Assembly: GCA_963703245.1 (NCBI GenBank)
Contig: OY969803.1
Coordinates: forward strand, 59,903 to 123,902
Direction of reading: 5' to 3'
DNA length: 64,000 bases
From: an uncultured bacterium
Lineage (GTDB): Bacteria; Patescibacteriota; Minisyncoccia; Minisyncoccales; CAVTZN01
Shown: piece after piece, positions 1,075 through 64,000 of the stretch
Numbering within the stretch: position 1 is the first letter of the stretch
How the letters are laid out: every line of letters starts with the position of its first letter
Notes under the pieces: generated by a model
Database searches by the model: none
The model's input: the letters and a program-made list of their open reading frames with translations, nothing else
Told to the model about the DNA's origin: nothing
Translations under genes and position numbers: made by a program

Positions 1075-2382
1075 TTATTCAATTGGCAAAGTAGAGGGCG
1101 GCTCTCCTTTTTTATATTGAACGCGAGGAACGGTAGGAGCTGGAGCAACACTTCTGCCCGGTAAATGCCACAGAGAAGCTAATTCTTCGGTGTTCAAAAC
1201 AATTGTCCCACCGCTTAAGGGGAAATAAGGAGGCAAGCGTTTTTGGAAATACCTGAATAATCTCCTGCATTTCAGATAAACTCTTCTTTTTTTAAAAAAA
1301 TAAGTGACTTTTGTTAAAGTGTTTTTTTCAATTCTTAAGTGATTTAAATTAACCGTACCGAATGAATTAGTGAAGCCAAAAGGAATTTTTGCCATTGCTT
1401 TTAGAAAAACATCTCTTTTCCCAAGATAAATCCAGCGAACGGTGCTTTCATAACAAAATTTGGAAATTTTTTCTTCAATTGATTTTACTACTTCTTTTTC
1501 TCCGGGAGTCATTTCCATCTCGGGAAGAGTTTGTCTTACTTCTTTTTTTTCTTCTTTTGGAGGACCAAATGCCACAATTTCCGCTGCTTCCTGTAAAATT
1601 GGCTTTGCTTTTTCTTTTTCGGGTCTTTTAACTAATTTATCAACAATCTTTTTCCCTTCTTCGACTAAATTTTTCTCGCCCCCTTCTCCAATAACAATGG
1701 GTTTGGCAACAATTTGAAACCAAAGCTGTTCACCGGGTTTCATCGCGGATATTCCATCCAATAAAGTAGATAAAGGATCCATCCTTTTCTCTTCTTTCGT
1801 GTCTGGACTCACTTCAAAGAATTTTTGATAAGTTTTAATCGGATAGACATGGGGTTTTTCAAACCTATAAGACGTACCAAAGAGGTCCCATTCTTTGTTT
1901 GGAATATCTTGGGGAACTTTTTTGGTATAATCGTCAACTTCAAATATTTCCGCCTCGGGATATTGGGAATAAATCGTTGATTCAACAAAATTTTTAAACA
2001 TCTTCCTAGCTCTAATGTAAAAATGGGGAACGCCGTCAATGCCAGCGATCTCAAGAGAAAAAGAAAGTAAGAAATGTCCTTCAATCCATTTTTCTTTCCA
2101 GTTTGGCGGATCGTAAATTGCCCACAAATTAGCAAAAATGTTTTCCATTACTTTAATTGGTCTTTCAACTTCTTCAGGCAATCTGATTTCGAGAAGAATA
2201 CTTGGCATCGTAGCATCCCATTTTTCGGCGATATAATAGTAATAAATTAATTTAAAGAACTGAAAAAATACCAGCAAGGCTGGTATCCACCACCAATCTT
2301 TGAGGATTTTTAAAAAAACAGGTAGAATCGCTGGTAATTTGTCAGCGATGGTTTGCCATATTGGAGATAAAACTTCTGGCAT
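1075..2382 (-). CDS. N-terminally membrane-anchored protein of unknown function, coupled to the downstream ATPase
   Basis: 435-aa ORF. Hydrophobic N-terminus (LPAILPVFLKILKDWWWIPALLVFFQFFKLIYYYY) followed by a soluble domain. Its stop at 1075 is 3 nt from the ATPase start at 1071, suggesting an operon. Confidence 0.6.
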   Translation of the reverse strand: MPEVLSPIWQTIADKLPAILPVFLKILKDWWWIPALLVFFQFFKLIYYYYIAEKWDATMPSILLEIRLPEEVERPIKVMENIFANLWAIYDPPNWKEKWIEGHFLLSFSLEIAGIDGVPHFYIRARKMFKNFVESTIYSQYPEAEIFEVDDYTKKVPQDIPNKEWDLFGTSYRFEKPHVYPIKTYQKFFEVSPDTKEEKRMDPLSTLLDGISAMKPGEQLWFQIVAKPIVIGEGGEKNLVEEGKKIVDKLVKRPEKEKAKPILQEAAEIVAFGPPKEEKKEVRQTLPEMEMTPGEKEVVKSIEEKISKFCYESTVRWIYLGKRDVFLKAMAKIPFGFTNSFGTVNLNHLRIEKNTLTKVTYFFKKRRVYLKCRRLFRYFQKRLPPYFPLSGGTIVLNTEELASLWHLPGRSVAPAPTVPRVQYKKGEPPSTLPIE

Positions 2383-2398
2383 TAATAAAAAGGCGCAA

Positions 2399-3427
2399 TT
2401 ATTTTTTTAAGGTATATTTTCCGTCTTTTGTCCTTGAAAAGTAATCTTTATTTGAAAGATTGAGTAAAATTGTGTTCGCTTTGACTAATCTTTGCGATAA
2501 AACCCTTTCAATAATTTCATCTTTTGTTAAAGCTTTTTTCGCTGCTTTCAAAACATCTACAATTATATCTTTTACCCAGCCGGGTTTATATCCCCATTCG
2601 GAAATAGCATAAATTCCCCTCCCTACCAAAACAAATCTTGGGTCTTTTATCAATTCATTATGAACCGTCTGAGGAAGCGCTTGTTCCGGGTAAAGGCTGA
2701 ATTTATTGATTTTATCAGTAATATCCATAAAGTGAAGGGGCTTTCCTTCTTTCTTAAGAATAAGGAAGGCTCTATCTTTTATTCCTCTGGGCTTTATTTC
2801 CGGCCAATCAGTTAAACCGATTTCTCCAAAAGAATTTTCTTCAATTTTTTTAGCGATTTCGTATGAAGAGATTATAAGCTCCAGTTTTATTTGTTTTCCA
2901 AACTGATTTTTCAATTCTTTTATTTTCATCTCAAAAAATTCATTCCTTGGAGAAGGATTTGATTCTTTCTTGAGATCTGCAATAAGACGGTCAACAACTT
3001 CTTGGGAAAGTTTAACTAAATCTGGCTTAACTGTCCAAAAAGGATAAAATTCATTAGTTTCCCCGTATCTAATAAACGGGTCTCCTAAAGTTAAAAGAAA
3101 GAAAACACAGGTTTTTTCGTTATCTTTCCCAAGCTCAGATAACGCCATATCTTCTCTTTTTAAACCACCCTGATTTTTAAAATAATCTTGAAAATAATCA
3201 AAAGCAGGTGCGGCAAATTTTAAAACTTCTGGTCTCTTTAAACGGCTCATTCCATCTTCCTCGATTTGGCGAACTCTCTCCCGAGTCAATTTATATTCCT
3301 CGCCAATGCCCTCCAATGTTTCTTTTTCGCCTTTTTCTAAACCAAAACGTCGGACTAAAATGTCCTTTGTCCTATCGGGTAAACCTCCTAAAAGATTTGA
3401 GCAAATTTTATGGTAATTTAATGGCAT
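2399..3427 (-). CDS. sigma-70 region-4-like HTH protein with a C-terminal HARE-HTH-like winged helix
   Basis: 342-aa ORF. N-terminus DILVRRFGLEKGEKETLEGIGEEYKLTRERVRQIEEDGMSRLK matches the sigma region 4 / LuxR-type HTH pattern. C-terminus IIVDVLKAAKKALTKDEIIERVLSQ resembles the HARE-HTH of RpoE-delta-like proteins. Confidence 0.5.
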   Translation of the reverse strand: MPLNYHKICSNLLGGLPDRTKDILVRRFGLEKGEKETLEGIGEEYKLTRERVRQIEEDGMSRLKRPEVLKFAAPAFDYFQDYFKNQGGLKREDMALSELGKDNEKTCVFFLLTLGDPFIRYGETNEFYPFWTVKPDLVKLSQEVVDRLIADLKKESNPSPRNEFFEMKIKELKNQFGKQIKLELIISSYEIAKKIEENSFGEIGLTDWPEIKPRGIKDRAFLILKKEGKPLHFMDITDKINKFSLYPEQALPQTVHNELIKDPRFVLVGRGIYAISEWGYKPGWVKDIIVDVLKAAKKALTKDEIIERVLSQRLVKANTILLNLSNKDYFSRTKDGKYTLKK

Positions 3428-3481
3428 GTTAATTCAATATAACATATTCTAAATGACCTGTCAACGGCGATTTTACCCCCT

Positions 3482-4366
3482 CTAGCCCTTTTTCTTTAAC
3501 CAGCTGACTAATAAGGGGCTGGCAATAAATATTGATGAATAAGCTCCAGAAGTTATCCCTATAATAAGAGCTAAAGCAAAATACCTTAAAGTTTGACCAC
3601 CGAAAAAGAAAATAGCAAAAAGGACAATCAAAACAGTTAAAACCGTATTAATTGATCTACCAAGGGTTTGATTTAAACTCCAATTAACAGTCTCCTCAAA
3701 TGACTGAGAGCTTCTTTTTAGAATATTTTCTCTAATTCTATCAAAAATAACTATTGTGTCATGCACCGAATAACCAAGTATAGTTAAAAGGGCTGCGATA
3801 ATCGGAATTGTAATCTCAATATTGTAAAGTTTTCCCAAAACAGCGAAAATTCCTAAAGGAATTAAAATATCGTGAAAAAGAGCGATTAACGAGGCAACTC
3901 CATACCTCCAAGAAGAGATTGGCCTAGAAATCTTTCTAAAAGCAATAGCAATATAAATAGTAATAGCAAATAAAGCCATAATTATAGCGAGGATGGTTTT
4001 TTGTTTTATTTCTTTACCAATTGATGGCCCTATGCTTTCAAAGTGTAATTCTTGAATTTTAGAAAGATCCCCAAGGTTTTTTAATATCTCCTGGTGGACT
4101 GTTTCGTCAATGTTTTTTAATCTCAAAATTACTCCTTTCTCCCCTGTCGGCTGAATAATAATTTCTCCCAAATTGAGACTTTTTAGTTTGTCTTCGATTA
4201 CCGAATTCTCTGGTCTTTTTTCAAAATTTAATTCCGTCATACTTCCACCAGTCAATTCAATACCAAATTTTAGACCGAAAATTATTATAGAAGTAATTGC
4301 TGCTATAATTAAAATTCCAGAAAGAATATAATAAACTTTTGAATATCTTGTAAATTGTATGTTCAT
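3482..4366 (-). CDS. secF: protein translocase subunit SecF
   Basis: 294-aa polytopic membrane protein directly downstream of secD. Has the typical SecF C-terminal TM bundle (HDILIPLGIFAVLG, VIFDRIRE). Confidence 0.9.
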   Translation of the reverse strand: MNIQFTRYSKVYYILSGILIIAAITSIIIFGLKFGIELTGGSMTELNFEKRPENSVIEDKLKSLNLGEIIIQPTGEKGVILRLKNIDETVHQEILKNLGDLSKIQELHFESIGPSIGKEIKQKTILAIIMALFAITIYIAIAFRKISRPISSWRYGVASLIALFHDILIPLGIFAVLGKLYNIEITIPIIAALLTILGYSVHDTIVIFDRIRENILKRSSQSFEETVNWSLNQTLGRSINTVLTVLIVLFAIFFFGGQTLRYFALALIIGITSGAYSSIFIASPLLVSWLKKKG

Positions 4367-4370
4367 ATTT

Positions 4371-5753
4371 TTACCAAAGCCAGTGAATTTTCTCTAATTT
4401 TGTATTACTAAAAAATTTCAAAAAGATTCTTGTTATAAAAATTGCTGAAAACATACTCGCTAAAACTCCAATACCTAAAGTCAAAGCAAATCCTTTAATA
4501 AAACTTGTGGCGAAGGTAAATAAAATAGCGCAAACAATCAAAGAATTAAAATTGCTATCTCGAATAGAAGGCCAAGCCCTTCTAAAACCTTCTTCCACTG
4601 ACGCGGAAAAACTTTTCCCTTGGCGAATTTCTTCTCTCATTCTTGAAAAAATTAAAATATTAGCATCAACCGCCATCCCAATAGATAAAATAAAACCTGC
4701 AATACCTGCTAAAGTTAGAGTAACTGGAATTAGTTTGAAAAAAGCCAAAACTAAAGCAATGTAAATTCCTAAGGCCAAAGAAGCGAGAATGCCAGGGAAT
4801 CTATAAAAAATTATCATAAATAAAATTACTGCCAAAAAACCAAAGATTCCAGATTTTAAAGATTGTTCCAAAGAAATCTTTCCTAACATTGGACCTACGG
4901 TTTGTTGGGAAATTAATTTTATCGGCACGGGAAGGGCTCCGGCATTTAAATTCCTAACTAAATCTCTGGCTGTATTCATAGTAAAATTTCCAGTAATCTG
5001 GGCTTTGCCACCCGAAATTGCCTCTTGAACGGTTGGAGCTGAAATTGGAGCCTGATCAATATAAATCGCCAGTTGTTTCCCGATATTTTTTGAGGTTAAT
5101 TCTTCGAAAATTTTAGCTCCCTCGTCATTAAATTGAAGCAAAACCATAGGCTTTGGATTTGTTTGGTCAAAACCAAGTTCTGCTTTCTTTAAATATTTTC
5201 CGGTTAAACTGGTAGCTTGAAAATAAGGATCTTCTAAAGCCAATTGCCAGTCAGGAAGTTTTTGGAGCTCTTCTAAATTTTTCCCTTCCACTTCTTTTTG
5301 TTTTGCAATAATTTTTTGAGTTTCTTCTTCTGGTCTTTGTTCTTTGAATTCAAGATAAGGAGTCTGCCCAATCATTTTTATCGCTTCGTTAACGTCTTTA
5401 ATTCCGGCTAATTCAATAATTAATCTTTCATTTTGAATTTGAACAACAGGTTCGCTGACGCCTAAAAGATTTACTCTTCTTTCTATAACGTCTCTTAATC
5501 CGGACATTGAATCTGCTTTTTCTTTTTCTCCAATTTGAGACAAATCGGCTTCATAAACAAGATGAGAACCTCCCTGGAGATCTAACCCTAATTTAAAAGA
5601 GATTTCTGGAAAGTGAGGTATTTTAATTACTTCTTCTTTAGCATTTATGAAATCCACGCCCTGATTGAAATATTTAGGGTAATCCAAAATCCCGGCAGAA
5701 GCTGCCAGAATAAAAATAAAAATTAGTGATATGCTTGTTTTCTTTTTTGACAT
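4371..5753 (-). CDS. secD: protein translocase subunit SecD
   Basis: 460-aa ORF with an N-terminal TM, a periplasmic-type domain (GLDLQGGSHLVYEAD, RVNLLGVSEPVVQ) and a C-terminal 5-TM block (AVDANILIFSRMREE). Confidence 0.9.
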   Translation of the reverse strand: MSKKKTSISLIFIFILAASAGILDYPKYFNQGVDFINAKEEVIKIPHFPEISFKLGLDLQGGSHLVYEADLSQIGEKEKADSMSGLRDVIERRVNLLGVSEPVVQIQNERLIIELAGIKDVNEAIKMIGQTPYLEFKEQRPEEETQKIIAKQKEVEGKNLEELQKLPDWQLALEDPYFQATSLTGKYLKKAELGFDQTNPKPMVLLQFNDEGAKIFEELTSKNIGKQLAIYIDQAPISAPTVQEAISGGKAQITGNFTMNTARDLVRNLNAGALPVPIKLISQQTVGPMLGKISLEQSLKSGIFGFLAVILFMIIFYRFPGILASLALGIYIALVLAFFKLIPVTLTLAGIAGFILSIGMAVDANILIFSRMREEIRQGKSFSASVEEGFRRAWPSIRDSNFNSLIVCAILFTFATSFIKGFALTLGIGVLASMFSAIFITRIFLKFFSNTKLEKIHWLW

Positions 5754-12727: not shown

Positions 12728-13111
12728 TTATTCCCAAGGATACTTAACCTCTAAGGTTTCTACCTGTTTTGGTTTTACTTTTAGTTTATTATATAAATAT
12801 TTTCTAACTTTTTGATAGTCGAATTTGCGACAAGAAAAAACATCAATATATATCTCTTTAGTCTTTATAAAAGTATGAATCGAAATATGGGAAAAATCAA
12901 TTATAGCAAAACCAGTAATACCTGGATTCGTTCTGTCTAAATCACGCACTAAATTAGGACCTGAAAGAACTTTCATTTTTACAATTTTAGGAATTTCAAA
13001 TAATAATGAAAGAATAAAATTTTCATCATTAAGAAATTTTCTATTACAATCAAACGCATCAAAAATAATATGGTATGTTTTAGTAAATTTCTTTTTATTA
13101 TTTTTCTCCAT
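12728..13111 (-). CDS. divergent AdoMetDC-fold (pyruvoyl decarboxylase-like) paralog
   Basis: 127-aa ORF. ITGFAIIDFSHISIHTFIKTKEIYIDVFSC aligns with the speD segment ITGVILLAESHIALHSWPEFNYLAIDIFTC. The Ser is retained but the preceding Glu is Phe. Confidence 0.55.
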   Translation of the reverse strand: MEKNNKKKFTKTYHIIFDAFDCNRKFLNDENFILSLLFEIPKIVKMKVLSGPNLVRDLDRTNPGITGFAIIDFSHISIHTFIKTKEIYIDVFSCRKFDYQKVRKYLYNKLKVKPKQVETLEVKYPWE

Positions 13112-13217
13112 TTTATAATTAAAAAATAATTTTTAAATTATCATACAATGATATAACAAGAAAAAATATGGAATATTTTTTTATTATATTAAAATTAAAA
13201 AATCTTGCAATAGAAAA

Positions 13218-13266
13218 CCCCGCCCTCTATACCCATCGAATTTTTCAATAAGTTTAGAGGACGGGG
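13218..13266 (-). terminator. 12-bp stem (one G-U) with a 25-nt loop followed by a U-run; terminator/attenuator in the polyamine operon leader
   Basis: Plus strand CCCCGCCCTCTA (13218-13229) pairs with TAGAGGACGGGG (13255-13266). On the minus-strand RNA the stem is followed by UUUUCUAUU. Confidence 0.5.
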
Positions 13267-13277
13267 CTGAGATTTCT

Positions 13278-13307
13278 TTATCTCTTCTTCTTCTTTTTCT
13301 TTGCCAT
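13278..13307 (-). promoter_or_regulatory. candidate leader mini-ORF MAKKKKKKR*
   Basis: ATG GCA AAG AAA AAG AAG AAG AAG AGA TAA read from the minus strand. Its stop lies 11 nt upstream of the terminator stem. No SD visible. Confidence 0.25.
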
Positions 13308-13359
13308 TTTAGAATTTAAAATCCAAATAACATATTATTTTATTGGAAATCTTTTTATC

Positions 13360-13407
13360 TTAGCAACAAGAACATGATTTCTTGGTTTTTTTCTTCTTCT
13401 TTACCAT
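13360..13407 (-). promoter_or_regulatory. candidate leader mini-ORF MVKKKKKTKKSCSCC*
   Basis: Read from the minus strand. Enclosed by a perfect 10-bp inverted repeat (13322-13331 and 13412-13421). No SD visible. Confidence 0.25.
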
Positions 13408-13579
13408 TTTTGTTATTTGGATGAATTATTTTTTAGAAATTTTTATTGCAAATAGCCGACCATCTATCCGCAAAAAAGAATTATTAATATATTTTCGCAT
13501 TTCAAGAGATATTGTCAATAGTTTTTGGTTAAGTTATCCACAGTGTCTCAAAAATTTTTTAGTAGTCGCAAAAATATTT

Positions 13580-14471
13580 TTAAATTTGTCCGAGATATTG
13601 AATTTCTTCTTCTAAATTGATTCCAAATTTATTTTTTACTTTATTTTTTGCTAACTTTATCAATTTTATTACATCTTTTGCTTTTCCTTTTCCCAAATTA
13701 ACAATAAAGTTCGCGTGTTTTTCAGAAATTTTTACATTTCCAACTCTTTTCCCTTTTAAACCGCACTGTTCAATCAGTTTACCTGCTGAAAATTTAACAG
13801 GATTTTTAAATACTGAGCCTGCGGAAAAACCATGTGGAACTTTTTTAATTCTTGTCTTTAAAATTTCCTGGCGATTTTTCTCTATATTTTTTCTTTTTCC
13901 ATTTTTTAAATTTAAGACAACTTCCAAAATTATAGGTTTGCTGGTTTTAATTTTTTTAAGCCTTGAATTTCTGTATCCGAAAGCAAGCCACTTTTTCCTA
14001 ACTCTTTTTATCCCATCATTTATCATTAGAAGTTCAACTTTTTCAACACAGTCGCCAATTGCCCAAGCTCCTCTTGGCCAACCGGCATTACCATAAACCG
14101 CCCCTCCTATTGTCCCTGGGATACCACTACCTTTTTCTAATCCCGTAAGTCCCTTTTTTGCTGCTGCTTTTATAATCGTATCAAAAGTTGCCCCTGATTC
14201 TGCAATAATTTTTTTATTATTAATTTTAATTCTTCTTGCCTCATTTTTTATAAAATTCCTTGAAACCTTTGTCGGAAACTAATAAATTTGAACCTCCTCC
14301 CAAAACAAAAAATGGCAAACTTAATTCTTTTGCCACTGAAACTGCTTTGATTATTTCTTTTTTATTTTTTGCAACAAAAAAATACTTGGCTGGCCCGCCA
14401 ATCCGAAAAGTAGTATAATTTTTTAGCAAAACGTTTTTTTGAACGCCCGGTAATAATTTTGAGATATCCAT
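13580..14471 (-). pseudogene. murB: UDP-N-acetylenolpyruvoylglucosamine reductase MurB, interrupted by one frameshift near 14245
   Basis: N-terminal piece MDISKLLPGVQKNVLLKNYTTFRIGGPAKYF...GGGSNLLVSDKGFKEFYKK* stops at 14241. One frame over it continues NFIKNEARRIKINNKKIIAESGATFDTIIKAAAKKGLTGLEKGSGIPGTIGGAVYGNAG and runs into ORF 13580..14026 (SAGSVFKNP...GLKGKRVGNVKISEKHANFIVN). Confidence 0.8.
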
Positions 14472-14620
14472 ATTTTGAGCTTTAGTGAAAATATATAGTT
14501 CTTTAAAAGGAAAGTTTATATTATTGTATTTTATCAGAGTTTCCGCTAAAATAAAATTGGGTCGGGAGGATAGCACTCACTAAAGACTTAGTTTTGGAGT
14601 CAACTCTCCTGGCCCATTCT

Positions 14621-14645
14621 AAAACCTCGCTTTTAGCGAGGTTTT
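14621..14645. terminator. hairpin AAAACCTCGC-TTTT-AGCGAGGTTTT flanked by A/T runs (bidirectional-type terminator)
   Basis: 8-bp stem AACCTCGC/GCGAGGTT seen directly, with T-runs on both strands. Confidence 0.45.
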
Positions 14646-14654
14646 AGTTTTTTA

Positions 14655-14729
14655 TTAAAAAACAACAAGCCTCGCTCGAGGGAGGCCTGCTGTCGACTTA
14701 GTAAGAGTTCTCTTGCGAGAGCACTCACT
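14655..14729 (-). ncRNA. candidate ~75-nt small RNA (or compound terminator of the upstream gene)
   Basis: Minus strand has TTGACA (14764-14759), a 17-nt spacer and TAATAT (14741-14736). Then a 30-nt hairpin AGUGAGUGCUCUC-GCAA-GAGAACUCUUACU with a GNRA loop. Then GCCUC-CCUCGAGC-GAGGC followed by UUGUUGUUUUUU. Confidence 0.25.
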
Positions 14730-27922: not shown

Positions 27923-28038
27923 GAGTTACGTTTTGGATGTTGTCGTATCTGACTATCCATTAGCGTAACCCTTTGCGGGACTGTCGGCAACTTATTGTAG
28001 CGCAAACAGTCCACCGTGGGGGAATAAATATGTGACAA
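27886..28038 (-). CDS. candidate 50-aa small basic protein (TTG start) in a GC-rich structured segment
   Basis: Minus strand AAAGGAGGTGA (SD at 28050-28046), 7 nt, then TTG. Translation (M)SHIYSPTVDCLRYNKLPTVPQRVTLMDSQIRQHPKRNSEEMERGRTPGR*. Below the ORF-track length cut-off. Could instead be an ncRNA. Confidence 0.3.
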   Translation of the reverse strand: MSHIYSPTVDCLRYNKLPTVPQRVTLMDSQIRQHPKRNSEEMERGRTPGR

Positions 28039-28090
28039 TAAGTCACCTCCTTTTGTCAACAAATTAAAATTCCCACTTTATGATTATATT

Positions 28091-28119
28091 ATATTATTAA
28101 AAACAAACGATTATGTCAA
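28091..28119 (-). promoter_or_regulatory. near-consensus sigma-70 promoter TTGACA-17-TAATAT
   Basis: Minus strand TTGACA at 28119-28114 (overlaps the stop of the 92-aa gene), 17-nt spacer, TAATAT at 28096-28091. Lies about 45 nt upstream of the SD of the 50-codon ORF. Confidence 0.4.
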
Positions 28120-28394
28120 TATTTTCTATCTTTAGCTCTGTTTCTTTTTGGTTTTTTGTCTTTTAATGGTAAAACGGTGCAATCCACCACTTCAGTTCCG
28201 GCGCCTATTGATAAAATTTCCTTATTCGCCCCGACTACAAGATGGACTTGTTGTGTTCTTTCTATAGTTTTTTTACATTTTACCACCATTTTTCTCGATT
28301 TCATGCCGTCTTTGCTATTAATCTTGAGAGTTATCACTCCTCCGTTATTTTTAACGAGCTGTGGGAAAATATCTTTTACTGTTTGCTTTTCCAA
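28116..28394 (-). CDS. orphan 92-aa protein with a basic C-terminal tail
   Basis: ATG preceded by TAAGGAGGTTAAAA (strong SD). No recognisable motif. Confidence 0.6.
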   Translation of the reverse strand: MEKQTVKDIFPQLVKNNGGVITLKINSKDGMKSRKMVVKCKKTIERTQQVHLVVGANKEILSIGAGTEVVDCTVLPLKDKKPKRNRAKDRKY

Positions 28395-28450
28395 TTTTTA
28401 ACCTCCTTATTTTGTTTTTTACCACATTGCTCAAAAAAAGTCAAAAAAGA

Positions 28451-28473
28451 AGCGCCATGACAAGCATGACGCT
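28451..28473 (-). terminator. rho-independent terminator after 28518..28811
   Basis: Minus strand AGCGTCATG-CTTGT-CATGGCGCT (one G-T) followed by TCTTTTTTGACTTTTTTT. Confidence 0.55.
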
Positions 28474-28517
28474 ACTTATTTTAATTTTATACAATTAACC
28501 TAACCGTTAGTTTTCTG

Positions 28518-28811
28518 TCAGCAAACCGCTGGTGTTTTCGGAAATTCAACAGTGAGTATCTGAATTAATACTTTCGTCTGTGCCGGAGTGAATATATAAT
28601 TATTTGTTGATTTCCCTGCGCCGTCTCTGCTGCGATTGCAAATCCTCGATATAATATGAAGGGTATGATCGTCCCATACAGTAATTATTATATCACTGTG
28701 TCCCCCTCTTATCTTAAGTTTCGCGTTAGCAAAAGTTTCCTCATAAGTGCCATTCATCCTGATAACTATTGTTTTCCCTGACTCAATAACTGGAATTGTT
28801 TTTTCTTTCAT
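28518..28811 (-). CDS. orphan 97-aa protein
   Basis: ATG preceded by AAAGGAGGGAAATA. Starts 19 nt after the stop of 28831..29373, so likely the same operon. No recognisable motif. Confidence 0.6.
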   Translation of the reverse strand: MKEKTIPVIESGKTIVIRMNGTYEETFANAKLKIRGGHSDIIITVWDDHTLHIISRICNRSRDGAGKSTNNYIFTPAQTKVLIQILTVEFPKTPAVC

Positions 28812-28830
28812 ATTTCCCTCCTTTCTTGAT

Positions 28831-29373
28831 TTAGCGATGATATGTTTTTAAAAGGCTTGGCTTTCTGAAATACTCGCATTTTCGTAATTTGCGTCCTTGA
28901 ATAATAAATTTTTTACAAACTCCCCACAGGCATATTCCTTCAACTTTTTCTCCTGGTGGCGGTAACCAGCGTCGCCGGCCCTTAGTAAGAGCTAATATCT
29001 GAATAACTCTAAAAGTATCTTCTTTTCTTACGCAATGCGAACAATGACAGCAGTCTTTGGTAATATTTTTGCTATCCCAATCATTTCTGTGCCATGACCA
29101 ATCCGTTGAAATCTCAATTTCTTTACCTAAAGCGTTTTTAACCATTATCTTTCCAGGCATATTACTCATTTTCTGCCTTATTTTTCTATTTTTTTTCCTT
29201 CCTCTGCTAAAAGATGGAAGTGGCGCGTCGCATTCAGTAACAGGGCCCTGACAAGCAAAACATCCGTCCGCCTCTCCATCAGTATTAGAAACACAAGTAT
29301 TCAATAATCTACAGTCGGCGCAAAGACATTCTCGGCCGTGGTATTCTGGATGAGAAGGATTATCACATTTCAT
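28831..29373 (-). CDS. orphan Cys/His-rich 180-aa protein (probable metal-binding N-terminal domain, very basic middle)
   Basis: MKCDNPSHPEYHGRECLCADCRLLNTCVSNTDGEADGCFACQGPVTECD, then RGRKKNRKIRQK, then CCHCSHC. SD AGGAGAAAG upstream of the ATG. Confidence 0.6.
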   Translation of the reverse strand: MKCDNPSHPEYHGRECLCADCRLLNTCVSNTDGEADGCFACQGPVTECDAPLPSFSRGRKKNRKIRQKMSNMPGKIMVKNALGKEIEISTDWSWHRNDWDSKNITKDCCHCSHCVRKEDTFRVIQILALTKGRRRWLPPPGEKVEGICLWGVCKKFIIQGRKLRKCEYFRKPSLLKTYHR

Positions 29374-29464
29374 TTACTTCTTTCTCCTTTCTTTTATTAA
29401 AAAATAAAAGGGCTAATTTTTATTAATGATACGATAATTTAAACTATCACAATTTTGGATAAAA

Positions 29465-29493
29465 AATCAAGCCTCACTTAATGGGGCTTGATT
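29465..29493 (-). terminator. rho-independent terminator after the IR-bounded cassette
   Basis: AATCAAGCC-(11 nt)-GGCTTGATT. On the minus strand it is followed by TTTTTATCC. Confidence 0.6.
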
Positions 29494-29567
29494 TAAAATA
29501 AAATTTTTATAATGGAACGGGCGGCTACGTTGCTTCTTTAGACCGATCTCCTTGGTTATAAAGTTTA

Positions 29568-29602
29568 TTAATAATAGCGCGTCGTCCAATCTATGTTGTA
29601 GG
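29568..29602. repeat. left copy of the ~35-bp inverted repeat
   Basis: TTAATAATAGCGCGTCGTCCAATCTATGTTGTAGG. Its reverse complement matches 31029-31064 except for a 2-nt mismatch and a 1-nt indel. Confidence 0.9.
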
Positions 29603-30292
29603 ACTGTAATACTTGGGATTCCAATACCATAGATTGCCCCTCTTGTATAGAAAACCGGGGTATATTTTATTTTCTCTATAAAGGTCCGGAACAAAAATTT
29701 TGATTATTTTTTCCACACACTCATTATAATCATTTTTTTCTTCATAATTCATATCCGTTAGGGCCTTAATGGCTTCTTGCGCTATTAAATAGGATTTTGT
29801 TTTTTGTCTTTTACATTTTTGTTCAAAGAATTTAAGTTGTGACTTATATTCCGGACAAAATTCGCAAAAAGTATAGAAATTAACTAAATTATTTATTATT
29901 TCTTCATCAGGAAGATTTATTATATTATCTTTTCCCCTGAACCAGTCTTTGTTTATAGGGTTAAATTTATAATCATATTTTATTGTTTTATGAGCGACGT
30001 AATCTTCTGGAAAATTTTTAAATGGATTAGTTATTTTATGGAAACTGGGATTACTACAAAGAATTAAAGAATACTCATTAATAAAAAATTTTTCTAAGTG
30101 AATAAGCTCATGTAAAATATGCACTTTGTTTATAGAATTGCAATGTAAAATCTTAGGCAATTGTGCCTTATCGTGCCAATCGGGCCAATTAATACAGGCG
30201 CCAACGGTGTTATTTTCTTGTATTATTACTTGATTTCCTGTTGTTTCTTGGATTAATTTAATTTTTTCTTCTATTATTTCTTCTATTTCCAT
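29591..30292 (-). CDS. HExxH-motif protein (putative zinc metallopeptidase), orphan
   Basis: 233-aa ORF with the motif KVHILHELIHLEKF. Its last four codons and stop lie inside the left inverted repeat. Confidence 0.55.
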   Translation of the reverse strand: MEIEEIIEEKIKLIQETTGNQVIIQENNTVGACINWPDWHDKAQLPKILHCNSINKVHILHELIHLEKFFINEYSLILCSNPSFHKITNPFKNFPEDYVAHKTIKYDYKFNPINKDWFRGKDNIINLPDEEIINNLVNFYTFCEFCPEYKSQLKFFEQKCKRQKTKSYLIAQEAIKALTDMNYEEKNDYNECVEKIIKIFVPDLYRENKIYPGFLYKRGNLWYWNPKYYSPTT

Positions 30293-30320
30293 ATCATTAT
30301 TGCGGTATATCCTCTTTTAT

Positions 30321-30956
30321 TTATTTTTCCCCAAAATACTTCAAATAAGCTTCCCAAAAAAACCTTAAATATTCTTGAAATTTTATTCTAATATCTCCCA
30401 AATATTGAATTTCCGTTCTATCTTTATTCCTATGTTTCAAGCCACTTAAGGAAGCAAATGCTTCGGAATTTTGTTCTATTAAGTTAAACCAGTGTGCCTC
30501 GTGAATAAATTCATTTCTCATATCATATAGTATTTCCCAAAATTCTAATTGGACAGGGATTTTGGTCAAAGATCTCGCTGTTATTGCTTCATTTAATGCC
30601 TTAATATTATGTGTTGAAAAATATTTTATGAAATCTTTTATTCTCTCCCTTGGTGATTCTGTCTCTTTATTAAGGTATTCTATTATAGAAAGAGTTATCT
30701 GATACATAAAACCATCTATGTTTACAATCCTTTCTTTGTCGGGAATTCTATAAAGATCGTGAGTATAATAAAAGAAAATTGTATAAAGGAAGTCTTCAAA
30801 TTGATCTTTAGAAGTTTGCTCTAAAAAAACAAAATATTCATTTTCATCACTAAAATACCCCTTTAAGTATTCCCAGCCCCTTTCTAATATTTTTGGGATT
30901 CTGCTTTCAAATGTGCCCTTATTGGTTTTTTCTAATAAAATTTTGGGAACGATCAT
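30321..30956 (-). CDS. HEPN-like protein (Rx4H motif), orphan
   Basis: 211-aa all-helical-looking protein. LYDMRNEFIHEAHW contains R-N-x3-H, as in HEPN RNase families (Abi/Apea/RiboL-PSP type). Confidence 0.5.
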   Translation of the reverse strand: MIVPKILLEKTNKGTFESRIPKILERGWEYLKGYFSDENEYFVFLEQTSKDQFEDFLYTIFFYYTHDLYRIPDKERIVNIDGFMYQITLSIIEYLNKETESPRERIKDFIKYFSTHNIKALNEAITARSLTKIPVQLEFWEILYDMRNEFIHEAHWFNLIEQNSEAFASLSGLKHRNKDRTEIQYLGDIRIKFQEYLRFFWEAYLKYFGEK

Positions 30957-31028
30957 CTTTTATTATTTTAATAGACTAATTTCCTATTTTTTAGATTAGT
31001 CCTTTTCAGAAAAATGGCAAGGCGAACG

Positions 31029-31064
31029 CCTTACAACATAGATTGATCGACGCGCTATTATTAA
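31029..31064. repeat. right copy of the ~35-bp inverted repeat
   Basis: CCTTACAACATAGATTGATCGACGCGCTATTATTAA. Immediately preceded by the palindrome AAGGCGAACGCCTT. Confidence 0.9.
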
Positions 31065-31066
31065 TC

Positions 31067-31090
31067 AAAAAGCCCAATTATGGGCTTTTT
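31067..31090. terminator. terminator AAAAAGCCCA-ATTA-TGGGCTTTTT after 31119..31820
   Basis: Perfect GC-cored hairpin with A/T runs on both sides. Confidence 0.65.
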
Positions 31091-31118
31091 GCTTTTCTTA
31101 AAGATTTACTTTTAAAAG

Positions 31119-31820
31119 TTAAAATCCTGTGAAAGTTTTTATTTTTTGGACGGGGACGGAAAGGATTTTTCCGTCTGAAGAAAGATAGTTTAGGCCGACG
31201 ACTTCTCCGTCGATATTAAATAAAGTTGTTCCCGGCGCGAATTTTCCTTCGGAAATGTTTGTTTCAATCAGATTCGCGTCAAAATTCTTAATAATACCTT
31301 CGTTTGTGAATTTTATAAACTTATCAACGCTGAATTTTTCGCCGAGTAAAAATACTCTGTCCCCCATTTTTATTTTTGTTTGGTCGGCGAAACTACAGAC
31401 AGACAAATTCCCTTTTTCAATTTTCAGCAAAGCTAAATTGTTTTGAGTGTCCCTTTTCAAAATTTTTGCGGGTAAAGTTTCCCCCTCGTAGAAAACTACG
31501 GCGTTTTGCGAAACAGTATTGGATAAAGTTAAAATCAAGCCGTCGTTGGTAATAATCAATCCTGAGCCGTTAAAAAGGTTTTTTACTCCGCTTTTCGAGC
31601 CAATTCCGACAACTGATTTTTCAACTTTTTCAATTGCCTGGGTCAAGGCAGTATTCTCCTGAATGCGAACTTCTTCTTTTTGGATAACTTGAGTTGGCGT
31701 TTCTTGTTTTTTCCCAAAAAGCGGTTTTTCGGCAAAATAGGGAGCTGTAATTTGAGCAGCCAAAATTCCGCCGATGGCACCCGCTACTAAAACTGCTAAA
31801 AATTTTAAAAGTGTTTTCAT
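31119..31820 (-). CDS. membrane-anchored trypsin-fold (HtrA-like) protein lacking the catalytic triad
   Basis: GSGLIITNDGLILTLSNTV aligns with GSGFIISEDGMILTNKHVV in the true HtrA at 36284 (His to Asn). NNLALLKI aligns with QDIAIIKI (Asp to Asn). EGKFAPGTTLF aligns with AGNSGGPLLN (Ser to Ala). No PDZ domain. Confidence 0.65.
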   Translation of the reverse strand: MKTLLKFLAVLVAGAIGGILAAQITAPYFAEKPLFGKKQETPTQVIQKEEVRIQENTALTQAIEKVEKSVVGIGSKSGVKNLFNGSGLIITNDGLILTLSNTVSQNAVVFYEGETLPAKILKRDTQNNLALLKIEKGNLSVCSFADQTKIKMGDRVFLLGEKFSVDKFIKFTNEGIIKNFDANLIETNISEGKFAPGTTLFNIDGEVVGLNYLSSDGKILSVPVQKIKTFTGF

Positions 31821-31824
31821 AAGA

Positions 31825-34536
31825 TTATTTTGTTAATGTTTTTTCTAATTTTCTTATTTTTGTCGCCTTTACTAAATTTGCCGGCAACTGAAAAATAATT
31901 TTGTCTTCTTCGGCATCAACTAAAACCCTTTCTCCCTCTTTGATTTCGCCCGACACAATCTTTTTTGCCAAAGGATCTAAAATCAATTGCTGAATTACTC
32001 TTTTTAAAGGCCTTGCTCCCAAATTTTGGTCGAAACCTTTTTCAGCCAGCAATTCTTTTGATTTTTCGGAAAATTTCATTTCGATTCTTTTTTCTTCCAG
32101 CCGTTTTATCACTCTTTCCAGCTGAAGATCGACAATTTCTTTAATTTCTTTTTTGCCAAGATAGTTGAAAATAACAATTTCATCAACCCGGTTTAAAAAT
32201 TCTGGACGGAAATTTTCCTCTAAAGACTCCATTACTTTTTCTTTTAAAGATTCTTTTTGGGAAAGAGCTTCTTCTTTCGTCACAAAACCCAAAGTTCCCA
32301 TTTTCGCAATGTATTCAGAGCCAATATTTGAAGTCATAATCAAAATCGCGTTTTTAAAAGAAGCTACTCTGCCTTTGGCATCGGTTAATCTGCCATCTTC
32401 TAAAATCTGAAGTAAAATATTAAAGACATCTGGATGAGCTTTTTCAATTTCATCAAGCAGAATAACACTGTAAGGCCTTCTGCGAATCTTTTCAGTTAAT
32501 TGGCCTCCTTCGTCATAGCCGACATAGCCTGGCGGACTTCCTATCATTTTTGAAACTGTGTGCTTTTCCATATATTCTGACATATCAAGACGAATCATAG
32601 AGTTTTCGTCATTAAATAAAAATTCAGCGAGCGCCCGCGCCATTTCAGTTTTCCCCACGCCGGTCGGACCCAAAAACATAAAAGAACCCAAAGGCCGATT
32701 TTCTTCTGAAATTCCAGCCCGCGACCTTCGAATGGCGTTGGAAACCGCGTCAACCGCTTCTCTCTGGCCAATCACTTTTTTCCCCAAAATTTCCTCCATT
32801 CTGTCCAATTTTTTCGCTTCTTCTTCAATTAATCTGGTTACGGGAATTCCTGTCCAGCGGGAAACGACTCTGGCAATATCTTCTTCGGTCACTTCTTCTT
32901 TCAAAATCCGGTGGTTTTTTTGGACCCTGACTAATTCTTTTTCAGCTGCTTTCAATTCTTTCAAAAGAGTTGGGATTTCGCCGTATTTTATTTCCGCCAC
33001 TTTCTGAAGATTTGCTTCTCTTTGAAAAATAAGGGATTGGGCGGTTAATTCTTCTATTTTTTTTCTAAGATTTTTAATTTTAAAAATCGCCTCTTTTTCA
33101 GATTTCCATTGGGCTTCAATAACACCAGACTCTTCTTTTAAATCAGCTAAAGATCTCGCAATCGCCTTTAATCTTTTCAATGAATCTTTATCTTTTTCTT
33201 TTTTCAAAGCTTCTCTTTCTGTTTCTAATTTAAGAATCTCTTGTTTGTATCTATCAAGATCTGTTGGCTCTGATTCGATTTCCAGCCTCAAAGCTGAAGT
33301 TGCTTCGTCCATTAAGTCAACTGCTTTGTCCGGCAAGAATCTGTCGGAAATGTAGCGCGAAGCTAATTCGGCAGCTGCGACTAAGGCAGAATCTTTTATT
33401 TTTACTCCGTGATGAACTTCGTATTTCTCTTTTATTCCGCGCAAAATAGCAATTGTGTCTTCAATTGAGGGTTCTTGAACATAAATCGGCTGGAATCTTC
33501 TTTCCAAAGCTGGATCTCTTTCAATATATTTTTGATATTCTTTCAAGGTTGTTGCGCCGATCGCCCGGAGCTCGCCTCGAGACAAAGCTGGCTTTAATAA
33601 ATTAGAGGCGTCAATCGCTCCCTCGGCAGCTCCAGCGCCAACTAAAGTGTGAAGTTCATCAATAAATAAAATATAATGACCGGCTACTCGATTGATTTCT
33701 CGAAGCAAGGCTTTTACCCTATCTTCGAATTCGCCACGATATTTAGTTCCGGCAACTAAAGCTCCTAAATCTAGAGCAATAATTTCTTTGTCTTTTAAGC
33801 TTTCGGGCACTTCGCCTTTTATAATTTTTTGGGCTAATCCTTCGATAATTGCTGTTTTTCCTACGCCAGCTTCTCCAATTAAAACCGGATTATTTTTTGT
33901 CCTTCGAGATAAAACCTGCATTAACCTTCGGATTTCATTTTCCCGGCCAATTACCGGATCTAATTTTCCCTGACTGGCCAAGTGGGTCAGATTTCTTGCG
34001 TATTTTTCAATCACCTGATATTTTGTTTCTGGTTCGGGATCGGTAATTCTTTGGCCGCCGCGAATTTGAGCTAAGTTTTTCAGAAAAGTTTCGTAATTAA
34101 GTTTTTCCAAAGACAAACCCGTTTTCCCCGGCTGGATTAAAGATAAACTATCTAAAATATCCTTTGCCCGAGAAGGAGTATCGATTATCGCTAAAAATAA
34201 ATGCTCAACGGAAACAAATTCGTCTCCCATTTTCAAAGCTTCTTTTGCGGCCCTATCGAGAACTCTCGCCATATCCTGAGTTAGATAAAACTGGCCGAAA
34301 GCAGGACCGCCGGTAATCGTTGGAATGTTAGTTAATTCTTTTTGGACTTTTTCTTTCAGTTTTTCAATATCAATTCCCATTTTCTTTAAAATAGTTAAAA
34401 GCACGCTTTCTTCTTGAGACATTAGCGCAAATAAAAGATGTAAGGCGTCAATCTGCTGCTGACCCCTTTCCTGGGCTAGAGATTGAGCCGTCATTATCGC
34501 ATCTTGGGCTTTGTGTGTAAATTGGCCTCCATTCAT
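31825..34536 (-). CDS. clpB: ATP-dependent chaperone/disaggregase ClpB
   Basis: 903-aa ORF with two AAA+ modules ([21 protein letters not shown]) and a long coiled-coil middle domain. Confidence 0.95.
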
Positions 34537-54658: not shown

Positions 54659-56590
54659 ATGTCAAGTCTTGATAAGATTTTAATTGTTGCTATCACCCCC
54701 TACTTTTTGGAAAAGGGGAATTTTTGGTTTAAAGAAAATATAAAACAAATTCTTGAAATCAGAAAAACCCAATCTTTTTTGAGGACAATCTTTTATTTTT
54801 AGAAAGAGATAAGGCAATAAATTTCTCTGAATTTTTAAGAAAGTTGGATGAAATGGGTTATGAAAGGGTTTGGCAAGTTTCTGAACCCGGTGAATTTCGC
54901 CAACGAGGAGGAATTGTTGATGTTTTTCCAGTTAATTTAGATTATGCTATTCGTTTTGAATTTTTGGGAAACAAAATTGAAAATATAGAAAAATTGCCGG
55001 TTGAAATTAGTGATGAAAAAGCCGCAAAAGAGATTTTAAAAAAGAAATTAAAATCCCAAAAATTATTTTCCGATTTAAAAGGATTGAAATCCGGGGATTA
55101 TTTAGTTCATCTTGACCACGGAATATGTATTTACAACCAGCAAATAAAAATTGGGTGTCAACAATATTATCAACTTGAATATGCGTACGGCGATAAGCTA
55201 TACGTCCCTTTTGGGTTGGAAAGAAAATTTTCTCGTTATATTGGTTTTTCTGAACCAAAAATTTCCCGACTTGGCTCTTTTTTATGGCAAAAAACAAAAA
55301 AGAAGATAAAAGAAGATGTAGAAAAATTTGCCAGAGAACTTTTAGAAACTTATGCTAAAAGGGAAATTGCTATTCGGCCGCCCTATATACCGGATGAAGA
55401 AATCCAAAAACATATAGTCGGAACTTTTAAATACGAAGAAACTCCAGATCAATCACAAGCGATTGAAGATATTAAAAAAGATATGGAAAAAGAAGAACCT
55501 ATGGACAGAATAATTTGCGGTGATGTTGGTTTTGGAAAAACCGAAGTGGCTTTAAGAGCAATGATAAAAGCTGTAATTTCCGGCAGACAGGTAGCAATGA
55601 TAAGCCCTACAACAATTTTGGCTAATCAGCACTTCCAAAATTTTAAAGAAAGACTAAAAAATCTGCCAATAAAAATTGCCATCTTATCACGACTACAATC
55701 TAAAAAAGACCAAAAAGAAATAATTGAGGGGTTAAAAACGGGAAAAATTGATATTGTTATCGGCACTCACCGGCTTTTGTCAAAAGATATTCAATTTCAA
55801 AACTTAGGACTTTTAGTTATTGATGATGAACAAAGATTTGGTGTAAAACAAAAAGAAAAATTTAAACAGTTTAGGTCTTCTTTAGATGTGTTATCTCTTT
55901 CCGCTACTCCTATCCCTCGCACTTTATATATGGCTTTATCTTCTCTGAAAGAAATTAGCTTGATTCAAACTCCTCCTCTCGGAAGATTATCAATAAAAAC
56001 TTTTGTACTCCCATTTTCAGAAAAAATAATTAAAGAAGCTGTTGAAACAGAGGTTTCTCGCGGTGGCCAAGTTTATTATTTGCATAATCGGGTGGAAACA
56101 ATTGAAAAAACAAAAGAATTTTTAGAAAATTTAGTATCCAAAGTAAAATTTGGAATAGCTCACGGAAAGATTAAAGGAGAAAGAATTGGTAAAGGTAATG
56201 GAAGATTTCCAAAATAAAAAAATTGATGTTTTAATCGCAACTACAATTATTGAAAATGGATTGGATTTGCCGAATGTTAATACTTTGATTGTGGCTGATA
56301 GCACCCGCTTAGGGCTTATCACAGGCATATCAAATTAGAGGCAGAATCGGCCGTTCTTATATTCAGGCTTTTGCTTATTTTCTCTATCCGCAAAAGTTAT
56401 CACCATTAGCGAAATAAAGATTAAAAGCTTTAAAGGAAGCTGAAGAATTGGGTTCTGGATATAAAATCGCTCTAAAAGATTTGGAAATTCGAGGAGCCGG
56501 CAACATTTTAGGCAAAGAACAATCAGGAAATATAAACCGGTTGGATTCAATCTATATTGTCAGATACTAAGCGAAACAATCTCGAAATGA
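54659..56590 (+). pseudogene. mfd: transcription-repair coupling factor Mfd (short form), decayed by several frameshifts and an in-frame TAA
   Basis: The central 457-aa ORF (54844..56217) has SGDYLVHLDHGICIY, GDVGFGKTEVALRA, LLVIDDEQRFGV and LSATPIPRTL. Downstream pieces continue in other frames: ELVKVMEDFQNKKIDVLIATTIIENGLDLPNVNTLIVADSTRLGL, LSQAYQIRGRIGRSYIQAFAYFLYPQKLSPLAK-TAA(56415-56417)[37 protein letters not shown], [16 protein letters not shown]. The N-terminal 60 codons from ATG 54659 are also out of frame. Confidence 0.8.
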
Positions 56591-63179: not shown

Positions 63180-64000
63180 TTATGGAATAGGGAATTTTTT
63201 ACAAAGTTTTTTAACTTCTGTTTTTACTTTTTTTATTGATAAGGGATTGGATATTACTTCGTTTATCCAAAAGGCAATTTTTTTCATTTCTTTTTCCTTC
63301 ATGCCTCTTGTGGTAATCGCCTGAACGCCAATCCGGATTCCGCTTGGATCCATTGGTTTTCTTGGGTCGTCAGGAATCACGTTTTTATTAAGTGTAATGC
63401 CGGCTTTATCCAAAAGGGTTTCGGCTTCCTTACCGCTGACTCCTTTTGAACCGAAAACATCAATTAAAATCATATGGTTTTCGGTCCCACCGAACATTAA
63501 TTTAAATCCGTAATTTTTAAGTTCCTTTTCTAAAGCTTTAGCGTTTTTCAAAATTTGCCTGGCATAAGCTTTAAACGATGGCTTTAAGGCTTCTCTTAAA
63601 GCCACTGCTTTGGCGGCAATATTATTCATATGAGGACCTCCTTGAAATCCCGGGAAACACGCCTTATCAATAATTTGGGCGAATTCTTTTTTACATAAAA
63701 TCATCCCACCTCTCGGGCCTCTCAAACTTTTATGAGTTGTTGTTGTAACAATGTCAAAATAAGGAACAGGGTTTGGAATAGCTTTTCCGGCAATAAGGCC
63801 GGCGATATGAGCCATATCAAACATGGTTATTGCTTTTACCTTTTTGGCAATATCACAAAACTTCTTATAATCAATCTGTCTTGTGTAAGATGAAAATCCA
63901 GCAAGCATTAATTTTGGCTTTTCTTTCTTAGCAATCTGTTCAAGATCTTTGTAATCAATTAAGCCGTCTGTTTTTGTTTTGTATCGAATAAAATTATAAA
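63180..64000 (-). CDS. glyA: serine hydroxymethyltransferase; N-terminus outside the window
   Basis: TTTTHKSLRGPRGG (PLP lysine motif). The frame stays open upstream of the listed Met to the window edge (..GLIDYKDLEQIAKKEKPKLMLAGFSSY). Confidence 0.95.
   Translation of the reverse strand, partial: YNFIRYKTKTDGLIDYKDLEQIAKKEKPKLMLAGFSSYTRQIDYKKFCDIAKKVKAITMFDMAHIAGLIAGKAIPNPVPYFDIVTTTTHKSLRGPRGGMILCKKEFAQIIDKACFPGFQGGPHMNNIAAKAVALREALKPSFKAYARQILKNAKALEKELKNYGFKLMFGGTENHMILIDVFGSKGVSGKEAETLLDKAGITLNKNVIPDDPRKPMDPSGIRIGVQAITTRGMKEKEMKKIAFWINEVISNPLSIKKVKTEVKKLCKKFPIP

Follow-up and report, generated by a model that had tools for sequence, protein, structure and literature searches.

What is the segment of about 1.5 kb that an inverted repeat sets off in this DNA, and does it have the marks of a mobile element? 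The window, that is the whole stretch of 64,000 nucleotides (64 kb) analyzed here, comes from contig OY969803.1 of an uncultured bacterium of the GTDB lineage Patescibacteriota. In it, the two arms of an inverted repeat bracket a cassette of two genes, encoding a 211-aa and a 233-aa protein, next to the terminator of ClpB/protease genes. The answer that we favor, tentatively and at somewhat less than even chances, is a single-copy, possibly relic element that resembles a mobile insertion cassette (MIC), carries defense cargo and was inserted after that terminator. The parts of the cassette are as follows.

29564 to 29602, no strand assigned: left arm of the inverted repeat (TTTATTAATAATAGCGCGTCGTCCAATCTATGTTGTAGG), covering the stop codon of the 233-aa gene and codons of its non-conserved C-terminal tail
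31029 to 31068, no strand assigned: right arm of the inverted repeat (CCTTACAACATAGATTGATCGACGCGCTATTATTAATCAA), of which 31064 to 31068 are the tail of the host terminator
30321 to 30956, minus strand: gene for the 211-aa protein, a member of a very rare family with R147-N148-x3-H152 and E93; predicted divergent HEPN-like RNase
29591 to 30292, minus strand: gene for the 233-aa protein, with H61-E62-x2-H65 on a helix and a PEDYVAHK helix about 30 residues on; predicted zincin-like metallopeptidase

A unique inverted repeat encloses exactly two genes

The inverted repeat that the earlier note had noticed in the letters of this DNA is real and unique in the window. Repeat finding pairs 29564-29600 with 31032-31068 over 37 nt at 92% complementarity, across a spacer of 1431 nt, and the pairing extends to 29602/31029 once a 1-nt indel is permitted (37-39 nt overall). 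With one mismatch included, it reaches 4 nt farther outward than the earlier note had placed it. Performing a self-BLAST of the window, we find the arm pair at E = 5e-7; it is the only inverted repeat in the whole 64 kb with E < 0.01 and arms less than 5 kb apart. A 31-nt core pattern has two matches in the 64 kb, which are the two arms, against 0 expected from 100 shuffles, and half-arm searches with up to 3 mismatches returned no extra arm copy in the window. Beyond the window, an arm core with 20 specified bases (a 22-nt pattern with two N) found no match in a set of one genome per GTDB species, to which the window's own genome does not belong. The same pattern had no match in IMG/VR, and BLASTN of the arms against plasmids gave nothing beyond an 18-nt chance match.

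Both ends of the repeat finish in TTAA, as the earlier note had it, and read TTATTAATAA and TTATTAATCA. Because these ends are palindromic, a target-site duplication is not callable, and TA, AT or TTAA fit equally. At its outer end, the right arm takes in 5 nt (31064-31068, ATCAA) from the tail ...TTTTTGAT of the host terminator. Three relatives keep this tail in position, so an element can extend no further than 31063. Within the left arm, the inner half (29587-29603) also pairs locally, at 82%, with 29620-29636, which lies 16 nt off, inside the 3' end of the 233-aa gene. This brings the occurrences of the 9-mer CAATCTATG or its complement to three, and the stop codon of the 233-aa gene could be enclosed in a local hairpin.

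The space between the arms holds exactly two open reading frames (ORFs), co-directional on the minus strand and 28 nt apart; on the opposite strand, there is no ORF of 50 aa or more in this space. The start of the 211-aa gene lies 72 nt from the right arm. At the other end, the 233-aa gene runs into the left arm with its last three to four codons and its TAG stop (29591-29593). These codons are part of a seven-residue C-terminal extension, most homologs ending at ...WxWNP, and residues 230-233 have a predicted local distance difference test (pLDDT) score below 50, that is, they are disordered, in the AlphaFold model. The left arm is therefore not conserved coding sequence. In many insertion sequence (IS) elements, the stop codon of the last ORF lies within the terminal repeat, so the overlap of stop and arm is no argument against an IS-type end. 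All of this agrees with the layout that the earlier note had described, in which the repeat brackets two genes, its left copy runs over the end of the second gene and its right copy stands between the first gene and the neighboring terminator; the refinement is that this terminator hairpin occupies 31066-31091 and that the arm's outer 5 nt come from the host.

The earlier note had also described a cassette without its own recombinase. Neither cassette protein matches transposase, integrase or invertase families, and the same holds for the 47 window ORFs that were scanned (all 48 of at least 150 aa except 13617-14096 on the plus strand).

The 211-aa protein is predicted to be a HEPN-like RNase

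The 211-aa family is very small: 5.8 billion proteins contain 21 clusters of it, and when 1.84 billion representatives were searched exhaustively with a profile, 29 proteins were retrieved at E <= 1e-3. The protein contains MRNEFIHEAH, an R-N-x3-H motif with a polar residue after the R. Within it, R147, N148 and H152 are invariant in the 21 homologs, as is E93 upstream; among relatives at about 20% identity, R147 is at least 90% conserved, H152 is invariant, and E93 is invariant or nearly so. AlphaFold gives a confident model (pLDDT 91; predicted template modeling score, pTM, 0.87). In this model, helix 139-153 has the motif at its C-terminal end, a beta-hairpin and the last helix come next, and E93 lies on the upstream helix 80-95. 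The published description of HEPN proteins gives Rx4-6H with a polar residue after the R, placed at the end of helix 3, together with an acidic residue on an upstream helix (PMC3710099). The 211-aa protein has Rx4H, the polar N148, the helix-end position and the conserved upstream E93.

The HEPN signature that the earlier note had recognized is thus conserved as a motif, but no HEPN profile or structure matches the protein significantly, so that the label HEPN-like RNase is a motif-level prediction. Searches of the PDB sequences with hidden Markov models (HMMs) came back empty for this protein. The only sequence bridge to HEPN is a remote relative (P0088) with sub-threshold matches to HEPN_RiboL-PSP (E = 0.0018) and HEPN_Apea. 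Aligning the 211-aa profiles by hhalign with the Ymh protein of homologous locus L005 and the R-N-x3-H protein of locus L006 gave nothing. We predict a HEPN-like protein rather than a demonstrated member of the superfamily, and a metal-independent RNase that would use R147 and H152.

Its closest known likeness is to the solitary HEPN proteins linked to restriction-modification (R-M) systems (Ymh/PF09509 and ApeA), with which the family shares the Rx4H, the polar residue after the R, the helix-end position, the conserved upstream acidic residue and a place in or beside R-M operons. Unlike the known HEPN families, the modeled 211-aa protein has an extra beta-hairpin behind the motif helix, and its additional N-terminal region is long and helical. 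A HEPN gene on a mobile (integron) cassette has precedent (PMC3710099).

The 233-aa protein is predicted to be a zincin-like metallopeptidase

The 233-aa family comprises 43 clusters, and H61, E62 and H65 are invariant in the 43 sequences. In the AlphaFold model (pLDDT 96, pTM 0.91), the HELIH motif lies on helix 56-71. About 30 residues further on, FKNxPEDYVAHK is nearly invariant; helix 94-108 carries E96, D97 and H101 of the PEDYVAHK part, which is at least 90% conserved. E67 is conserved too. The two motif helices are consecutive and follow N-terminal strands, a layout from which we infer a small gluzincin, and the E96/D97/H101 helix could supply the third zinc ligand. The HExxH signature claimed in the earlier note stands in the sense that its three residues are invariant, but it lacks a significant match to a peptidase family or structure, and the zincin-like label is for that reason again a motif-level prediction. 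An HMM search of the PDB with this protein gave nothing relevant. We regard the protein as a predicted metallopeptidase.

The invariant HExxH helix after N-terminal strands is shared with minimal gluzincins (jannalysin) and other HExxH zincins. Unlike the known zincins, the 233-aa protein has no peptidase match in Pfam or NCBIfam, and some of its homologs carry a SEC-C motif. This N-terminal zinc-binding motif (PF02810) occurs in about one fifth of the HExxH family (P0026, P0027, P0030, P0033, P0035, P0037, P0038, P0047 and P0063); the window protein is without it.

Homologs of both genes sit in defense islands, apart from each other

We checked the genomic surroundings of the homologs. Members of the two families adjoin type I, IIG and III R-M, GmrSD, SduA_C, KAP, nSTAND1, NERD, Mrr and Ymh-HEPN genes, and the 12 loci of the 211-aa family fall into six or seven distinct contexts. 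The placements are as follows.

211-aa homologs in L001 to L003: adjoin a KAP NTPase and a LexA-methylase fusion
211-aa homolog in L004: between a HAD hydrolase and an unannotated gene
211-aa homolog in L048: adjoins a Shedu SduA_C nuclease
211-aa homolog in L049: 7 nt downstream of an MmeI-type R-M gene (1737-5636), followed by NERD and Mrr genes
211-aa homologs in L050 to L052: 34 nt downstream of a type III R-M Res gene (L050: 2103-5645), with GmrSD nearby
211-aa homologs in L053 and L054: Parcubacteria-like context
233-aa homolog in L005: adjoins type I R-M genes and a Ymh HEPN protein
233-aa homolog in L007: adjoins GmrSD
233-aa homolog in L011: adjoins nSTAND1/DUF4062
233-aa homolog in L013: adjoins a methylase and a HincII-like nuclease

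Both families are typical defense-island genes, which supports the defense-type cargo that the earlier note had suspected. Away from the window, the 211-aa gene is solitary and in many cases lies immediately behind R-M genes; in L049 and L050, the 211-aa homolog is placed like the third gene of an R-M operon. Searches of IMG/VR, GenBank phages and PLSDB plasmids found no member of either family. At the DNA level, the 211-aa gene is closest to its homolog in L004, with 78% identity over 650 nt, and the homology ends at the gene borders, which suggests that the gene travels independently of its surroundings.

The earlier note had further proposed a HEPN-toxin/metallopeptidase pair of the toxin-modulator type. 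As a conserved pair, this idea fails: a 233-aa homolog stands beside none of the 12 loci of the 211-aa family, and a 211-aa homolog beside none of the 21 loci of the 233-aa family, so that the adjacency of the two is unique to the window. A looser functional link is hinted at by three cases (the window, L005 and L006) in which a member of the HExxH family lies beside a HEPN-type or R-N-x3-H protein. The small ORFs of 42-43 aa that lie downstream of 211-aa homologs are unrelated to one another. Next to HExxH homologs, the genes L019:5642-6718 and L024:5263-5982 show weak sub-threshold MauJ matches (PF17419, E = 1e-3 to 1e-4), and MauJ-like genes may be another recurrent neighbor family.

A second case of a repeat-bracketed homologous cassette, independent of the first, is found in L006. 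Here, an inverted repeat of 260 nt with 96% identity (1-259 and 2690-2949) brackets a set of three genes, namely a membrane protein, a 245-aa protein with NRNPHHH (again R-N-x3-H) and, last, the 233-aa homolog. The contig begins exactly at the outer edge of one arm, and each arm holds a long hairpin of its own (CCCCGCTCCAGAAC...GTTCTGGAGCGGGG). The less than perfect identity and the 2.4-kb spacing argue against a fold-back assembly artifact. A bracketing match in L010 proved to be of low complexity (GAA/T runs) and was discarded.

The cassette lies behind two terminators in a variable stretch

Three further hairpins define the setting of the cassette.

31066 to 31091, no strand assigned: bidirectional terminator hairpin of the upstream ClpB/protease genes; host sequence, kept in position in relatives
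31017 to 31034, minus strand: second terminator-like hairpin, GTAAGGCGTTCGCCTTGC followed by the T-run CATTTTTCTG; lies upstream of the 211-aa gene and shares bases with the inner end of the right arm
29461 to 29491, minus strand: terminator-like hairpin and T-run outside the left arm, about 100 nt past the 233-aa gene

Read along the minus strand, the order is the stop of the protease gene, the hairpin 31091-31066, the right arm, the hairpin 31034-31017, about 60 nt and the ATG of the 211-aa gene. The second hairpin directly follows the host terminator, and thus two terminators in a row precede the cassette. The roughly 60 nt before the ATG contain no visible Shine-Dalgarno sequence, and promoter prediction gave no sigma-70-like site ahead of the 211-aa gene; the cassette mRNA may be leaderless. 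The two genes are probably co-transcribed.

The neighboring protease is a trypsin-like protein, also of 233 aa, whose named homologs come from Parcubacteria and Pacebacteria metagenome-assembled genomes; the host is thus probably a member of the candidate phyla radiation. Three syntenic relatives (L045-L047) have a protease 64-66% identical to it and keep the order of ClpB, protease and variable stretch; L047 also keeps the DeoR-HTH, sigma-70 and DUF5667 genes in window order. The stretch from the protease to the DeoR gene differs in every relative. All three lack both cassette genes and any arm-like sequence, and hold other genes instead, including PRK/AAA_18-like kinases and, in L046, a Fic/HTH_17 pair. 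A protease scan of GTDB genomes yielded relatives of 35% identity or less only, and the protease near the L053 homolog is not orthologous to that of the window. The left flank (ACGTAGC...CCGCCCGT) resembles the terminator region of the relatives weakly, and we judged this too weak to use.

In the window itself, three small ORFs at 28116-29373 on the minus strand, of 180 aa (rich in cysteine pairs), 97 aa and 92 aa, take up what is left of the variable stretch from the cassette to the DeoR-HTH gene and match no family. Among the relatives, L046 carries a 638-nt inverted repeat of 99.7% identity (12775-13412 and 14080-14717) that lies within two convergent LTD-domain genes and runs to the end of the locus. 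In L045 (4572-7004) and L046 (4331-7004), which come from the same sample, ClpB is split into several short called genes, probably through assembly frameshift errors rather than biology.

The wider window is a housekeeping region. Of its 48 ORFs of 150 aa or more, five are on the plus strand and the rest on the minus strand, and most of the 47 scanned ones are housekeeping genes, among them SecA, SecDF, FtsZ, FtsA, HisRS, NrdD, topoisomerase I, RelA/SpoT, ClpB, HtrA and NifS. An ORF of 457 aa at 54844-56217 on the plus strand contains UvrB-interaction, CarD/TRCF and DEAD domains only and is short for Mfd. The SHMT ORF at 63180-63908 on the minus strand matches only the C-terminal half of the model (174-399 of 399); the N-terminal half may lie upstream, past the first start codon and possibly past the end of the window.

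Discussion

How far does the cassette resemble described elements? A MIC consists of two inverted repeats and passenger genes and has no transposase (PMC4337579, PMC3913671). The cassette has terminal repeats around passenger genes, and there is no transposase inside it or among the 47 scanned ORFs. It shares the imperfect repeats, the passenger genes and the missing transposase with MIC231 of Bacillus cereus, the TnXax1-derived MICs of Xanthomonas and the qnrD mic; the last of these, at 1,519 bp with 24-bp repeats (PMC3913671), is also about as long as the cassette. The earlier note knew of no described system with this architecture, and in this respect it has to be corrected, as both MICs (PMC4337579, PMC3913671) and dif modules (PMC6449649) are sets of genes between inverted repeats that carry no recombinase. 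The architecture has described precedents; the cargo families are uncharacterized and structurally without neighbors in PDB and BFVD. MICs share their repeats with a resident IS or transposon, whose transposase moves them, and usually have target-site duplications and several contexts or copies. For the cassette, we found no cognate element, no second copy and no unequivocal duplication. The cassette differs from known MICs in its cargo as well, namely two defense-type genes of uncharacterized families in a Parcubacteria-like genome.

If the cassette is MIC-like, a segment of about 1.5 kb, roughly 29569-31063, would be a horizontally acquired two-gene islet with terminal inverted repeats. It would have moved, if at all, by a transposase supplied in trans, and it may now be an immobile relic. 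The insertion point would lie just after the ClpB/protease terminator, within the stretch that varies among relatives and before the DeoR/sigma-factor genes, and an excision or empty-site junction would join ...TTTTTGAT directly to ...AAACTTTATAACC. Within the islet, the 233-aa peptidase may control the 211-aa RNase or sense for it. The transposition origin, the two enzymatic activities and the functional coupling of the two proteins are all things that we infer.

Several observations weigh against the MIC-like reading. There is one repeat pair only, with no copy and no solo arm in the window, the GTDB species genomes, IMG/VR or plasmids; no cognate IS or transposase is known, and a target-site duplication is not established. 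Bracketing repeats are missing from ten further 211-aa loci and from the longer 233-aa loci, and since these are unbracketed where the flanks are long enough to judge, the repeats are not a trait of either protein family. The guanine-plus-cytosine (G+C) content of the cassette, 28.5% against 36-38% in the immediate flanks, stays within the housekeeping range of the window (z about -1.5; z about -0.5 for GC3, the G+C of third codon positions). We do not count the dip as evidence of foreign origin, because three housekeeping genes of the window are equally low and GC3 is unremarkable. For the mobility that the earlier note had proposed, the absence of the cassette from three syntenic slots speaks in favor; on the other side, no second copy and no orientation variant were found in the collections searched, and the relatives are too diverged for DNA alignment of the junctions, hence there is no empty site at base resolution. 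Regarding the cargo, neither protein has a significant match in Pfam, NCBIfam, PADLOC or PHROGs. The best Foldseek matches of the 211-aa protein have E-values of 0.5 (PDB) and 0.3 (BFVD), with no HEPN protein among the top matches, and those of the 233-aa protein are M3 and M9 peptidases and jannalysin at E-values of 1.4-4.9 and template modeling scores (TM-scores) below 0.35.

Could the arms serve a purpose other than transposition? They may be crossover sites for a host recombinase acting in trans, an invertase or Xer as in dif modules, which would flip or exchange the cassette and so give phase-variable expression or shuffling of a potentially toxic defense module. The inverted orientation of the repeat and the lack of a local recombinase fit such a role, as does the contig break at the outer repeat end of L006, as would be expected if the assembly graph had a branch there, at a segment that is invertible or repeated. 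The arms differ at two neighboring positions between two perfectly conserved blocks, which would fit as well; with only three differences in all, their positions have no statistical weight. Among described systems, the dif modules of Acinetobacter plasmids are gene sets, toxin-antitoxin pairs included, between inversely oriented 28-bp sites, and like the cassette they hold one or few genes in 0.8-3 kb and no recombinase of their own (PMC6449649). Unlike these 28-bp sites in plasmid arrays, the cassette arms measure 37-39 nt and the site is chromosomal, in a housekeeping region. The arms contain no 11-6-11 site with an inner palindrome. Their best similarity to dif is 14/28, whereas 17% of random 58-mers of the window reach 16/28; their dyad symmetry is at most 7/11, a value that 37% of random windows reach. 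We therefore rejected a dif module, as this layout is missing and the similarity is no better than in random windows. Invertons, too, have short inverted repeats around a segment and possibly a recombinase encoded elsewhere. They usually flip promoters or gene parts, and both orientations are seen in reads; unlike them, the cassette encloses whole genes and has no mapped promoter. No promoter outside the cassette points inward, and the 64-kb window holds no recombinase gene among the ORFs scanned. Taken together, we consider a site-specific recombination role unlikely.

Still less credit goes to the possibility, raised by the earlier note as its alternative, that the arms pair in RNA. They would then form a long-range 5'-3' stem closing the two-gene transcript, for instance a processing or stabilizing stem for RNase III of the kind found around rRNA genes. 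With a predicted energy of -52.7 kcal/mol, the arm duplex appears in the minimum-energy fold if both arms are on one transcript. However, the right arm borders on the protease terminator at its outer end and shares its inner end with the second terminator-like hairpin and T-run, so that it would be transcribed by read-through only; any plausible cassette promoter would lie downstream of it. As the left arm overlaps a stop codon, the stem would be opened by translating ribosomes. No homologous locus keeps such a stem, and Rfam families have no match in 28000-32500. The pairing idea is thus weakened to the point of being improbable.

The alternative to which we give most room, although at clearly lower odds than the MIC-like element, takes the repeat as a leftover of an old rearrangement without present function, either two solo ends of extinct elements or an inverted duplication at the acquisition of DNA, and the two genes as mere neighbors in a variable stretch. 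A single-copy repeat with no partner element in the window, the GTDB species genomes, IMG/VR or plasmids is what such a history would leave, and the gene pairing unique to the window, the unexceptional composition and a surrounding stretch that differs in every relative all point the same way. It is the precision of the bracketing that this account explains poorly: on the left, the arm runs over the last gene's stop, on the right it is 72 nt away from the start of the first gene, the 37-nt match at 92% is far beyond chance (E = 5e-7), and L006 offers an independent bracketed homologous cassette. The unit could also be read as a new IS with its two ORFs as an unrecognized transposase, given the classic layout of about 1.5 kb, one or two ORFs, terminal repeats of about 38 nt and a stop inside the repeat. 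Yet the two families never co-occur elsewhere, which brings this reading close to refuted; they are single-copy and mostly without bracketing repeats, members of the 211-aa family lie operon-like 7-34 nt downstream of R-M genes, and there is no match to any transposase family. We regard a new IS as very improbable.

What would the cassette, taken as a MIC-like element, mean for these bacteria? As it stands, it is a well-documented curiosity. A much wider claim, which we see as a long shot, would be that repeat-bounded defense cassettes are a recurring way for small-genome Parcubacteria-like bacteria to swap or flip defense genes through a recombinase in trans, with the HExxH protein as a modular partner of unrelated HEPN-type RNases (the 211-aa protein, the R-N-x3-H protein of L006 and the Ymh protein of L005) in a new protease-RNase defense system made of two folds without solved relatives. 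Mobile elements in ultra-small Parcubacteria-like genomes are few and poorly described. If mobile, the cassette would be an example of defense genes carried on transposase-less, repeat-bounded cassettes in such a genome, and, judged by their sequences and surroundings, its two rare defense-island families may be reasonable candidates for new anti-phage effectors.

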